NCBI GenBank assembly: GCA_963722075.1
Contig: CAVRJM010000001.1
Location: forward strand, 1,300,690 to 1,364,689
From: Candidatus Babeliales bacterium
GTDB lineage: Bacteria > Babelota > Babeliae > Babelales > JANWKD01
DNA: 64,000 nucleotides
Direction of reading: 5' to 3'
The notes below the pieces were generated by a model. That model worked only from the letters and a program-made list of their open reading frames with translations. It searched no databases and was not told the origin of the DNA. The first letter of the stretch is position 1; each line of letters opens with the position of its first letter. Of the stretch, positions 2,252-59,351 are shown in pieces. A program made the position numbers and the translations under genes.

Positions 2252-2872
2252 ATGCTATTCAGATCAAAAATTGCTTGTGCAGCTCTATTACTAAATTTAT
2301 TTTTGTGCCCGTTAGCACAATCGAATGAAAGTCCTTTTAACCAAATAATAGAATTATTAGAATCCGGTGGTAACCATGATTATATTGGCGAACCGGTTTG
2401 CCAATTAGAACATGCCTTACAATGTGCTCAATTGGCAGTTGATGCTGGTGCTGATGATCAAACGGTACTAGCGGCATTACTTCATGATATTGGCCATTTA
2501 TGCGCATCTGGTGATAACGCAACGATGGGTGAATATGGCATCGATCAACATGAAAAAGTGGGCGCTCAATTTGTTCGTGATCATGGTTTGCCCGAAAAAG
2601 TTGCGCAACTTATTGAAGGTCATGTACAAGCAAAGCGGTATTTAACCGCTAAATATCCGGAATATTATCAAAAGCTTTCTGATGCTAGTAAACAAACGCT
2701 TGAATATCAAGGCGGCCCGATGTCGCCAGAAGAGGCTTTAGAATTTGAAAAAGACCCGTTATTTGAACAAAAGCTGCAAATGCGTTATTGGGATGAGCAA
2801 GCAAAGAAAGTGGGTTGGCAGGTAAAGCCGTTAGAAGATTATAAAACTTTGCTTGTTAATTATTTGCGTTAA
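2252..2872 (+). CDS. HD-domain metalloenzyme, PhnZ/TmpB-like oxygenase, with predicted signal peptide
   Basis: GEPVCQLEHALQCA, AALLHDIGH, HEKVGA, HVQAKRYL, LSDASKQTLEYQGG and RYWDEQAK fit the PhnZ-like HD family. Confidence 0.8.
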   Translation: MLFRSKIACAALLLNLFLCPLAQSNESPFNQIIELLESGGNHDYIGEPVCQLEHALQCAQLAVDAGADDQTVLAALLHDIGHLCASGDNATMGEYGIDQHEKVGAQFVRDHGLPEKVAQLIEGHVQAKRYLTAKYPEYYQKLSDASKQTLEYQGGPMSPEEALEFEKDPLFEQKLQMRYWDEQAKKVGWQVKPLEDYKTLLVNYLR

Positions 2873-4907
2873 AAAGATGTTTATGAGGGTAATTTTCTTT
2901 AATTTTATCCTGTAAAAACTTTTTAACTGCATCTGGTAATTTCTGAAGTGACGGTATAAATAGTTTAAATTCATCTGAGAATAAATAATCACTATTATCT
3001 TCTTCTATATGCTGTAAAGCATAATCAAATAGTAACATGGTTAAGAGGGATTGATCTTCTAGTTGCTTTTTATCATAAAAGCTATATTCAATTATTTGAT
3101 TTTCAAAAGAAACAAATAGTCGTCGATTATCATACGAAAATGCACAAGCGTTAGGTAGATCATAGGTATTATAAGGGATGGTTGTTATACATTCGCCGGT
3201 TTGGATTTCTATTATTTGAATTTCTTCTCGTGCTGTTGGTGCATGCTTGTTTTTCAAAGTTGCCATAAGGGCACCATTAGGTGAAAAAACTAATTTATCT
3301 AAAGGTGATTTTTGTGGCAATTCTTTAAGAGATTTTTCAGCTTGTATATCCAATAAGCAAATGGCGTCTTCATCATTATATGCTAATACATTTGATGTTG
3401 GTGAAAAAGCAAAATCATATATTTTTTTATGAGTAGTATATGTTGTCACTATTGAATGTTTGGAATAATCATAAATATGAATTTTGCTATTCTCTTTTGA
3501 ATCTTCATTAATAGCAATAAGAGGGCCGTTGCGTGAAAATGCATGTTTAGTTGATAGTTGGTTATTAACGGTGATGGTTTGGTTAGTATTAAAATCATGC
3601 AAATAAGTAGCATGCGGGTTTTGAGTAGAATATACTAGCTTATTATTTGGAATGAAGGTTATTGCTGCACAACAGCTATCTGAGTTAATAGTTTTAATAC
3701 ATTTACCAGTGTTTACATCCCATATTTTAATTAGATTATTATCGGTCCCTTTTTTTTGTTGGCTTGCTAAAAAAGCACCATCTGGTGAAAAGCTAAAGCA
3801 TACATCTACAAGATTAATAGGTAGCTTACGTATTGGTTTCTTGGTTATGCAATCAATGAATGCAGTATCTTTAATTGTTTTTCTTATAAAAGCTGTTTGA
3901 GTGGGTGATATAATAAATGCACCGTAATGACTGCTGGGTAGTTGTCTTAAAATGAACGATGAGGTTACTTTTTGTGCTATCTGCTTTGAAATGGTATTAA
4001 TTCTTGTTGAATGATTAATGATCTGCTGTACTAATAGCTGTTCTTGCTGCGGGGTAAGTTTAAACGCATTAAACCAAGAAATAAAGCCGGTAATAGTTTT
4101 GCTATATTTTTTTTGGGCTAATTCATACAGTTTTTCTAAGCAACTACTAGTTATTAATGAGAAATTAGTTTGCTGAACATAATCCAATAAGTGTGCAAGA
4201 GATGTTTGCGTATAAGTAGTCCTAATACGGTTAATAATATGTGGTATACATAAATTTACTAAAGAAGGTATTTCAGCAGCTGGTAAAAAATAAGAAGTTT
4301 GCGGTGCTCGTATTTTTTGCTCGGTTGAAGCATATTCAAAAAATAAACTGTCTGATTTTTTTAGCAAGGGATATCCTATTTGAGCAGATTGCCCAATAAG
4401 GTTGTTAATGGCATTGCGCAGTGCGTTGACAGTTTTTGTCCACTTATCGCACCCATTATTATACAAAGTAATAATTTGTGATAACCCATGCAGTTGCTTA
4501 TGATGAATAAGAAAATCAATCAAAGGTAAAAGTTGTTCCAGAGCATTGTTAAAAAGCAGTTGATCTTCTTCTTGTTGAAGATGAATAATAGGCTCTATTA
4601 GTGTGCTGCATAAATAATCAATCAGCTCATGATGAGTAGTATGCTGAATTAATTGAATCATAGCATTAAGTTGTTGATTAAGTGGTAGATTAGGGGTAAA
4701 GATCGAATTCAAAATATCTTGAAAGCAGTTATTATCCTGGTGATTAAAGGCATGTTCAAGTTGCTGTGCAATGTGGGTAATTGAAGAACTTTCTTGAATT
4801 GATATGTTGGTATTGCTTGTATACGCTGTCTCCATAGAATATGTAAAGAAACCAGCAGTACTTAATGCAAATAGAAAATAAAGTAATTGCTTACCAATGA
4901 AATCCAC
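2856..4907 (-). CDS. Secreted WD40 beta-propeller protein with helical N-terminal region
   Basis: Signal peptide then MET; repeats FSFSPDGAFLAS..IKIWDVNTGKCIKT, FAFSPTSNVLA, LVFSPNGALMA, CAFSYDNRRL. Confidence 0.8.
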   Translation of the reverse strand: MDFIGKQLLYFLFALSTAGFFTYSMETAYTSNTNISIQESSSITHIAQQLEHAFNHQDNNCFQDILNSIFTPNLPLNQQLNAMIQLIQHTTHHELIDYLCSTLIEPIIHLQQEEDQLLFNNALEQLLPLIDFLIHHKQLHGLSQIITLYNNGCDKWTKTVNALRNAINNLIGQSAQIGYPLLKKSDSLFFEYASTEQKIRAPQTSYFLPAAEIPSLVNLCIPHIINRIRTTYTQTSLAHLLDYVQQTNFSLITSSCLEKLYELAQKKYSKTITGFISWFNAFKLTPQQEQLLVQQIINHSTRINTISKQIAQKVTSSFILRQLPSSHYGAFIISPTQTAFIRKTIKDTAFIDCITKKPIRKLPINLVDVCFSFSPDGAFLASQQKKGTDNNLIKIWDVNTGKCIKTINSDSCCAAITFIPNNKLVYSTQNPHATYLHDFNTNQTITVNNQLSTKHAFSRNGPLIAINEDSKENSKIHIYDYSKHSIVTTYTTHKKIYDFAFSPTSNVLAYNDEDAICLLDIQAEKSLKELPQKSPLDKLVFSPNGALMATLKNKHAPTAREEIQIIEIQTGECITTIPYNTYDLPNACAFSYDNRRLFVSFENQIIEYSFYDKKQLEDQSLLTMLLFDYALQHIEEDNSDYLFSDEFKLFIPSLQKLPDAVKKFLQDKIKENYPHKHLFNANN

Positions 4908-5181
4908 TAAACCCTCCCATTTTAAATCAAGGTTATATAATCTAATTATAAAGAATAAAAAGAATTGTTCAAGAGTTGTTTTTTACAAATATAAATATTT
5001 TATTGTTGTTGCCTCCGATTATTTCTGAATTAACCGCAATATTTAATATTGGAATTTACGGTCTTTTAAAAACGGTAGAATCTTTTTATGATTGAAAAGT
5101 AGAAGCATATAATCTAGAAATATATGATAGAAAAGAAAGAAGATGATAGAATAGAGCAAAGTAAAGCAGTAGGAGAGTAGT

Positions 5182-58176: not shown

Positions 58177-58190
58177 TAAATGGGGAATAT

Positions 58191-59351
58191 ATGAAAATAG
58201 TTACCATACTAGGAGCTTTATTAATTGGCAATTCGTTAATTGCCATGGAAGCTCCTATTAACCATAAAGAATTAATAGAAGTACTATTTGAAGATAATGA
58301 AAATGGAATATTTGATAAAGCGGTGTTGGAAATATCACCAACATTAAGAAGTAGGTCGTCACGTTTATCACCAGGAAGCCCATTAGGAATAGATGGTAAA
58401 AAACGTTACGGGATAAATAAAGAAGATTTCGAAGAATTCATTTATCCTTTAATGCAGGCTTTATATGAAAAACGATCTACAGAATATTTTCAACCTAATC
58501 TTGATAGGCTTGCTCGAAGTGATGGGTATGGATATTCGAGAGCATGGAGCATTTATCATGCAATTAACCATTTGCAACTGCAAAACCGTACTACTTTATT
58601 ACAGCCACCAGATCCGCTGTATAATAAAAGACCACTTGAGATGGCATCTAAAAAGATTTTTGAGCCTCGTAAGCTTTCCACTAAAAAAAATAGTTCTACT
58701 GATGAAGAAGAAAAATTCTTAGCATGGTTGCAAGATCAGAAAGATGATGATTTATTAACTGGATTGCTTTCTGATGTACAAGACAACATGAAGAATGTAG
58801 GCAATCAAAATGGGAAAGCTATTGACCAAGGTGATTCCCCTGTAGATTTTAATGGATATGATTTGGTAAATAAAAATAACGTTGTAGATCAAAATATCTT
58901 GGAACAAGAAATAAGAATACCAGTGGCGGACGAGGAAGGAAGACAAGTAGGTATGCTTAATATACCAAAATATTTGCTACCATATTTTGAGCAATTATAT
59001 AATCAAATCGGTATTAATGAGACATGGGAAACGGCGCCATTAATAGATACACTAGTTTCCGCTTCGATCATTCCCTTATTGAATACTCTTTTTCCGTTGA
59101 TGAGTGGAAGTGATCAATCCATAATAAAAAATATACAAGATAAGCTAGAAAATGAATCAAATGATACGCTCGTCGCATTATTGATAGCAGTAGATTTTCT
59201 TGGCGGTGAGCTTATAACTGAGGCGAGTTTAATAATATTAGCCAAAAAAATAACTCTATTAAAAGAAATAGGTAACACGAAGGAAATAGAAAGGTTAATA
59301 GATAACTTACCAATACATTTATGCAGATCATTACCAGCATATTTCGCCTGA
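58191..59351 (+). CDS. Secreted Skp1/BTB-like protein, paralogue 3, lacking WD40
   Basis: Signal then MEAP; shared EVLFEDNENG, EDFEEFIYPLMQA, LPYF, LLIAVDFLG; ends where the propeller begins in the paralogues. Confidence 0.75.
   Translation: MKIVTILGALLIGNSLIAMEAPINHKELIEVLFEDNENGIFDKAVLEISPTLRSRSSRLSPGSPLGIDGKKRYGINKEDFEEFIYPLMQALYEKRSTEYFQPNLDRLARSDGYGYSRAWSIYHAINHLQLQNRTTLLQPPDPLYNKRPLEMASKKIFEPRKLSTKKNSSTDEEEKFLAWLQDQKDDDLLTGLLSDVQDNMKNVGNQNGKAIDQGDSPVDFNGYDLVNKNNVVDQNILEQEIRIPVADEEGRQVGMLNIPKYLLPYFEQLYNQIGINETWETAPLIDTLVSASIIPLLNTLFPLMSGSDQSIIKNIQDKLENESNDTLVALLIAVDFLGGELITEASLIILAKKITLLKEIGNTKEIERLIDNLPIHLCRSLPAYFA

Follow-up and report, generated by a model that had tools for sequence, protein, structure and literature searches.

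Short linear motifs that follow a Sec signal and mark a further step to the cell surface or to a host are known from the Bacteroidetes lipoprotein export signal, from PEXEL in Plasmodium and from RxLR in oomycetes. In Bacteroidetes, the Q-rule places Gln at the +1 position of signal peptidase I substrates, where it is cyclised to pyroglutamate (PMC5837995; PMC10653852; these and all other papers are cited here for excerpts of their text). Widespread as parasites of protists, Dependentiae have hardly been brought into culture, and it is still unsolved by what means hundreds of their eukaryote-like proteins are delivered, no injection system being known for them. For one cultured member, signal peptides were reported on 79 of 126 ankyrin proteins, and no secretion system other than a type II one was detected (PMC4378268); in another one, 44% of the proteins carry signal sequences (PMC6561590). 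Here, we analysed a window of 64,000 nucleotides (i.e. the whole stretch C1:1300690-1364689) from the genome of a Candidatus Babeliales bacterium (GCA_963722075.1, hereafter G000; 1.466 Mb in four contigs, GC 0.35, 99% complete as judged from marker genes), together with the genome around it and with related genomes, for one feature of secreted proteins: a Met standing directly after the predicted signal-peptide cut and mostly followed by an acidic or amide residue.

Between 10% and 15% of the proteome bears this mark. Genes and signal peptides were called with crude procedures of our own: 1383 open reading frames (ORFs), picked by codon score, cover 88% of the genome, the signal-peptide filters let through 38-50% of ORFs, and cleavage sites are predicted from the -3/-1 rule alone. 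A lax definition of signal peptides yields 686 proteins; in 126 of them (18.4%), the residue that precedes the first charge beyond the hydrophobic run is Met, versus 1.7-4.4% at neighbouring positions and 2.25% overall. With a strict definition (one hydrophobic run not exceeding 26 residues, no additional membrane segment, a length of 60 amino acids (aa) or more), Met precedes the first charged residue in 113/520 proteins against the 2.25% background (binomial p = 4.5e-74), and Gln in 36/520. The enrichment is restricted to one residue position. The motif M[EDQN] occurs 284 times at residues 16-33 versus approximately 100 expected, and 207 proteins display a hydrophobic core before it. When the -3/-1 rule is added and up to three polar residues are permitted before the first charge, 137 proteins fall into the Met class.

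The logo of this class shows A (48%), S (26%), G (17%), T (5%) and C (4%) at -1, L/S/A/I at -3 and Y/N/F at -2, whereas after the Met the +2 residue is predominantly E (47%), followed by Q (12%), D (11%), K (9%) and N (7%), with a further enrichment at +4 (P 18%, D 14%, E 14%). Taken together, E, Q, D and N occupy +2 in 77% of the 137 proteins by one count and in 103/147 by another, and L does so in 7/147. The preliminary description of the window had set the signal-peptidase cut just before the Met, which agrees with the -3/-1 rule, satisfied directly before Met in 96/113 proteins versus 0-36/113 at sites moved by 1-5 residues. Presequences are 15-31 residues long (mode 18-24), with a net n-region charge of +1.5 and a hydrophobic run of about 18 residues, values shared by the non-Met class. 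Indeed, signal-peptide features are alike in both classes and only the early mature part differs, being more acidic and polar in the Met class (4.55 versus 3.65 acidic residues among the first 30 mature residues). The Met class is made of ordinary Sec-type signal peptides with a predicted signal-peptidase-I site directly before Met, and the exported protein would therefore start with Met-Glu/Gln/Asp/Asn, often Met-Glu-x-Pro.

The mark lies mainly on lineage-specific proteins and on domain types able to act only in the eukaryotic cytosol. Pfam scans covered the first half of contig C1 and the window, and domain counts are given among the matches listed. The 130 Met-type proteins comprised ankyrin (10), WD40 (5), DnaJ (3), C2H2 zinc finger (2), AAA (2), Sel1 (1) and cPLA2-like (1) domains, as well as a few ordinary families (OmpH-like, metallophosphatase). 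The 150 non-Met signal-peptide proteins (29 longest excluded) comprised three ankyrin proteins and many enzymes (oxidoreductases, HAD, thioredoxin, M23, M48, the endonuclease/exonuclease/phosphatase family (EEP) and GNAT); glycoside hydrolase family 1 (GH1) also belongs to the non-Met class. For ankyrin, the contrast (10/130 versus 3/150) corresponds to a Fisher p of 0.04. Reciprocal-best orthologues (at least 30% identity, in nine partial relatives) were retrieved for 13/236 Met-type proteins (5.5%), 73/318 other signal-peptide proteins (23%) and 430/829 remaining proteins, the difference between the first two being marked (p = 5.7e-9). By both measures, the +1 Met is not equally common in ordinary exported enzymes, as the preliminary description had noticed. 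Its suggestion that the Met would be a simple effector predictor stands only in part: the mark is useful, but it is leaky, being absent from three ankyrin proteins and, by the lenient definition, present on an OmpH-like protein, and it works in some families only.

Among the signal-peptide proteins encoded in the first half of C1, eukaryote-type activities are also represented by a cPLA2-like lysophospholipase, DnaJ domains, C2H2 zinc fingers and a DOT1-like histone methyltransferase domain.

The rule is a trait of some Babeliales families and is absent from others. The 60 other genomes drawn from the phylum all belong to one order, and the identical code was applied to eight other genomes (a 200 kb sample of each, 88 kb for G062). 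Met precedes the first charged residue in 17/85 proteins of G003 (family f1), 9/55 of G014 (f11), 18/73 of G020 (f17) and 10/61 of G022 (f19), versus 0/67 of G057 (f6), 1/38 of G058 (f12), 0/52 of G061 (f13) and 0/18 of G062 (f3). Pooled, these two groups reach 54/274 and 1/175, respectively (p = 1e-11, a value that overstates the contrast, related genomes being non-independent), and an anchor-free count on the same groups gives 91/274 versus 14/175. The preferred pair also varies, with Met-Asp in G020 and G022 (loci L064-L083) and Met-Glu in G000, G003 and G014. Around the LepB (signal peptidase I) genes of other public genomes (52 loci), 34 of 187 signal-peptide-like proteins displayed a rule site followed by Met; these sites are patchily distributed over the LepB tree, with 4/9 in one deep branch, and are too few per genome for family calls.

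Selection retains the Met as an amino acid. At -1 and +2, the choice among synonymous codons does not deviate from that of the whole genome (all p > 0.2), and the constraint therefore acts on the protein; a nucleotide-level motif is thereby ruled out. Met-class members are spread over 102 of the 398 BLAST clusters of mature regions, 78 of these 102 being singletons. A spreading DNA cassette combining promoter and signal peptide was ruled out as well (21 weak matches among 9316 pairs). Between G000 and G001, a genome of the same genus, 104 reciprocal-best pairs were found, of which only four weak ones belong to the Met class. Since Met-class orthologues are too few, retention of the Met was measured on paralogues: in pairs with at least one Met member, both carry Met in 68%, 70% and 75% of cases at less than 30%, 30-45% and more than 45% mature identity, respectively, against a baseline of 37%, and the eight residues on each side are approximately 20% identical at the two lower identity levels.

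Within the window, the 12 N-termini reported in the preliminary description are all present (table 1); in each, the Met at +1 follows a presequence 16-24 residues long whose last residue is small. The upstream starts of all 12 genes display a Shine-Dalgarno (SD)-like site (-4.7 to -11.1 kcal/mol), and the Met itself lacks one in 11 of the 12. The gene at 16159 is an internal start within a longer ORF beginning at 16105, the SD energies favouring 16159 (-5.8 versus -0.2). Pfam identified WD40 propellers in the products of 2856-4907, 53565 and 56032, a weak DnaJ match in that of 39638 and no match in the others. A homologue search with residues 1-200 of the 56032 protein among 5.8 billion proteins returned only the protein itself. 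The exported proteins of ordinary bacterial type that had been set against these 12 lack the Met as described for the HD-domain, EEP, HAD-like and GH1 enzymes; for the 'three barrels' of the same set, Pfam gave only a weak porin-like match.

Table 1. Features of the window (positions counted from its first letter) and, where the prefix C1 is given, of the surrounding contig; a slash marks the predicted cut and SD energies are in kcal/mol.
Feature	Position	Strand	Junction Met codon	Remarks
Exported HD-domain enzyme (contrast)	2252..2872	+		...PLAQS/NESP; no junction Met
WD40 propeller protein, 683 aa	2856..4907	-	4835-4833	24-residue signal peptide, ...FTYS/METAY; SD -10.7 at start versus -2.7 at Met
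Orphan protein	16159..16587	+	16219-16221	signal peptide MFKKFLFLSLTLFNLHNCLS/MNTKE
Exported EEP enzyme (contrast)	17420..18277	-		...SNALA/VPLR; no junction Met
Exported HAD-like hydrolase (contrast)	18491..19177	+		...PRIHA/DNAL; no junction Met
Orphan, 114 aa	19249..19593	+	19315-19317	...DSLLT/MDKME
Orphan, 129 aa	20343..20732	+	20400-20402	...SSLQA/MRSKDD
Orphan, 388 aa, GTG start	22068..23234	+	22116-22118	...TIVYG/MEIEDD
Short ORF, 69 aa	27329..27538	+	27389-27391	...VMSHS/MDNSRQ
ORF, 220 aa	27544-28206	+		different frame from 27329-27538
Orphan, 916 aa	36872..39622	-	39562-39560	MSFYKF...PAAWA/MSRITARSRK; SD -11.1; mature start basic, Ser-rich
Tandem paralogue of the 36872-39622 gene, 402 aa	39638..40846	-	40786-40784	...TYSWG/MNKVTRPR; DnaJ match C-terminal
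Orphan, 378 aa	41040..42176	+	41097-41099	...PMVYS/MDEEQ
Exported GH1 (contrast)	43340..44722	-		no junction Met
Weak porin-like match	48842-49738			
Propeller protein, 817 aa	53565..56018	+	53634-53636	...YSRLKA/MEAPTD; SD-like site at Met too (-5.9), unlike the other 11
WD40 paralogue, 714 aa	56032..58176	+	56086-56088	...NSLLA/MEAPSS
Paralogue, 386 aa	58191..59351	+	58245-58247	...NSLIA/MEAPIN
LepB paralogue	C1:326673-327545	+		
LepB paralogue	C1:1297747-1298607	-		2 kb upstream of the window
GNAT acetyltransferase genes (five in G000)	C1:577510-582915; C1:929670-930251; C1:1299644-1300261			the last just upstream of the window
Secretin gene, 941 aa	C1:1154637-1155116			
Secretin gene, 800 aa	C1:1159498-1159968			

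Two observations concern individual genes of this set. The 69-aa ORF is followed, 6 bases after its stop, by the 220-aa ORF, and the two may represent a frameshifted or broken gene. The tandem paralogues at 36872-39622 and 39638-40846 have a common signal peptide (MSFYKF...), and the stretch after their Met is rich in Arg and Ser and free of acidic residues, in contrast with the acidic start common elsewhere in the class; in this, it is similar to the organelle-targeting presequences of eukaryotes, for which a free N-terminus would be required.

Regarding the export route, G000 encodes two secretins and two ATPases of the type II secretion system type, and searches of this genome for FHIPEP, VirB4 and TssC, as markers of type III, type IV and type VI secretion systems, returned no match. 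The two secretin genes lie within 5 kb of one another. Two LepB paralogues, 69% identical, were detected, and duplication of LepB, often in tandem, is common across the order, with forms of roughly 290, 325 and 400 residues. In a LepB tree of 64 of the 66 sequences (two fragments shorter than 240 aa excluded), LepB was discarded as determinant of the rule, since neither copy number nor clade tracks it: G014 follows the rule with one LepB, and G058 and G062 do not with two. All five GNAT acetyltransferases of G000 display a hydrophobic N-terminal anchor or signal peptide, and no plainly cytoplasmic GNAT was seen in this genome. An exported GNAT acting as N-terminal modifier was rejected too, similar anchored GNATs being present in genomes with and without the rule.

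We tentatively propose, with a probability of roughly 0.4, that the mark renders the N-terminus of secreted proteins inert in the host cytosol. Host-directed proteins would be exported via Sec and a secretin-type system, so that cleavage could expose any residue, including those that host N-degron pathways read as destabilising. Met at +1 with an acidic or amide residue at +2 would restore the class of N-termini that eukaryotic cells keep (Met retained, not Met-hydrophobic), and the protein would then be inert to N-terminal surveillance by the host. This proposal is favoured by the nature of the pairs themselves, as Met-Asp/Asn/Glu/Gln is the retained-Met class handled by NatB (PMC11735805), by the rarity of hydrophobic residues at +2 and by the presence of domains that need a eukaryotic cytosol.

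Several points weigh against this proposal. The predicted cleavage before Met rests on a crude rule, and a weight matrix, trained without supervision on the non-Met signal peptides, cut before Met in 30/257 proteins versus 23.9 by chance; because this matrix had captured h-region hydrophobicity instead of -3/-1, its outcome is uninformative rather than negative. K or R is found at +2 in approximately 12% of Met-class proteins. NatB acts co-translationally on the ribosome (PMC11735805), and an imported protein would thus probably stay unacetylated. Small +1 residues would also evade the classical Arg/N-degron pathway, so that the choice of Met is not fully explained. Furthermore, sister families with equally many signal-peptide proteins do without the rule (0/67 in G057), and a need for stability in the host is therefore not universal. 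In G057 (loci L084-L093), the rule site is often followed directly by E or D (A/E, A/D), in 16/67 proteins versus 50/504 in G000; with this acidic residue already at the predicted +1, the rule looks like a Met inserted before an acidic residue.

A different function is possible, and nearly as likely as an N-terminus inert in the host: the exposed Met-acidic N-terminus, with Pro or an acidic residue at +4, could be a sorting tag read in the periplasm by a lineage-specific factor. This factor would direct the protein over the outer membrane, with vesicles or the secretin system as the path, or further into the host, which would amount to a two-part secretion signal. The motif is indeed fixed in position at the cleavage site and extends to +4. 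That some families have it and others do not suggests a reader co-evolving with it. The preference also changes from Met-Glu to Met-Asp between genomes. Since the signal peptides of both classes are indistinguishable, any discrimination must come after the cut, and, markers of type III, IV and VI systems having given no match, host-directed proteins require a second step that depends on Sec. However, no lineage-specific machinery was found, neither LepB copy number or clade nor GNAT genes track the rule, two to four residues hold little information for a sorting signal, and type II secretion signals are generally conformational rather than linear. A bolder form of this idea, to which we give somewhat less credit, is that the Met-acidic N-terminus is the second half of a two-part signal that routes a large and fast-evolving effector repertoire from the periplasm to the protist host, with a reader confined to the rule-bearing families. 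If true, it would amount to a new pathway of effector delivery and to the bacterial equivalent of PEXEL/RxLR.

A protective or kinetic role outside the host cytosol, in which the +1 residue shields from exopeptidases or tunes signal-peptidase processing with neither mimicry nor sorting, appears improbable. The Q-rule offers a precedent for a lineage fixing one +1 residue for protein stability (PMC5837995; PMC10653852). Unlike the Q-rule, though, the present one concerns only between roughly a quarter and a third of signal-peptide proteins and leaves out housekeeping periplasmic enzymes, and an unmodified N-terminal Met offers no obvious protection. The more acidic early mature part of the Met class would fit such a role, as acidic residues near the mature N-terminus are well suited to Sec export.

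Two explanations that see in the Met a start codon, past or present, are both very unlikely. According to the first, genes that are young or came by horizontal transfer were extended at their 5' end and thus acquired a signal peptide, their former start Met not having decayed yet. The concentration of the mark in lineage-specific, fast-evolving genes is also what this model predicts, but retention of Met does not drop with paralogue divergence even though the flanks are near saturation, E at +2 reaches 47% versus 4-6% at real starts, and sister families with equally many secreted orphans show no such Met. According to the second, the Met is an internal initiation site yielding a cytoplasmic isoform without signal peptide, or the true start behind a spurious upstream extension, an objection that the preliminary description had itself raised. 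The junction codon is ATG by definition, the gene at 53565 has an SD-like site before its Met, and the T-rich RNA of the h-region, probably unstructured, could permit SD-independent initiation. Nevertheless, the mean SD duplex energy is -4.74 kcal/mol at upstream starts and 0.04 at junction Mets, the latter being weaker than ordinary internal Mets (-1.58), and energies of -6 or lower are reached by 48/126 upstream starts versus 2/126 junction Mets. Residue 2 at SD-backed real starts (K 33%, N 15%, A 7%, E only 4-6%) differs from the residue after the junction Met, and neither TTG nor GTG is in excess at the junction (5 seen versus 3.8 expected from codon usage). Accordingly, the Met is not an SD-led start codon. 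In addition, the presequences have the n-region charge, h-region and length typical of signal peptides, and related AT-rich genomes give no such Met under identical processing.

Finally, an artefact of the crude gene caller, the signal-peptide filter or the AT-rich composition is scarcely credible, for although our procedures are crude and let through 38-50% of ORFs, the same code gives 0/67 in G057 at equal GC (0.34) and with a similar share of signal peptides (39%), the positional enrichment is limited to a single residue, and about 44% of proteins have signal sequences in a cultured relative (PMC6561590).

The mark may flag effectors in a phylum without known injection machinery. Two residues readable from the sequence set apart a host-directed secretome in several families, with approximately 140-240 candidate effectors in G000, and the presence or absence of the rule between sister families provides a natural contrast for finding the machinery or the selective pressure behind it. 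The hypothesis that Sec-dependent effectors must disguise the N-terminus created by signal peptidase also becomes directly testable.

A close biological setting is that of the cultured Dependentiae (PMC4378268; PMC6561590), which belong to the same phylum, display the same classes of ankyrin and eukaryote-like proteins with signal peptides and led to the same inference of Sec plus a type II-like system. The main texts of these two papers use the word 'methionine' 0 times and describe no +1 rule, and our literature search found no description of one. The family-restricted nature of the rule differs from this shared repertoire, as G057 has the secreted repertoire without the rule. With the NatB class, the likeness is that approximately 70-77% of the predicted mature N-termini of the Met class are Met-D/E/N/Q, given cleavage as predicted, and the difference is that the N-terminus is made here by a bacterial peptidase, whereas NatB works co-translationally on host ribosomes (PMC11735805).

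Other N-terminal signals differ from the mark. In contrast with a lipobox, +1 is Met instead of an invariant Cys, and the -3 L and -1 A/S/G are only loosely similar; in contrast with type IV prepilin-like signals, which combine a short basic leader, a G/F or G/M cut and Glu at +5 with a hydrophobic stretch after the cut, this stretch stands here before the Met, and a polar, acidic mature part follows. The Bacteroidetes lipoprotein signal follows a lipidated Cys, and PEXEL and RxLR, which differ in residues and positions, belong to eukaryotic parasites and lie further downstream.

A near parallel in form is the Q-rule, in its published description (PMC5837995; PMC10653852) likewise a lineage-specific single residue at +1 after an A-x-A-type site, visible only in proteome-wide logos and absent from related lineages. 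The residue is Met instead of Gln here, and +2 (E/D/Q/N) is constrained as well. Whereas the Q-rule covers most substrates in all compartments, the Met rule covers a subset, approximately 22-37% of signal-peptide proteins, biased to host-directed orphans, and ordinary exported enzymes lack the Met. After the Q-rule, it provides a further case of lineage-specific information at the +1 position of signal-peptidase substrates.

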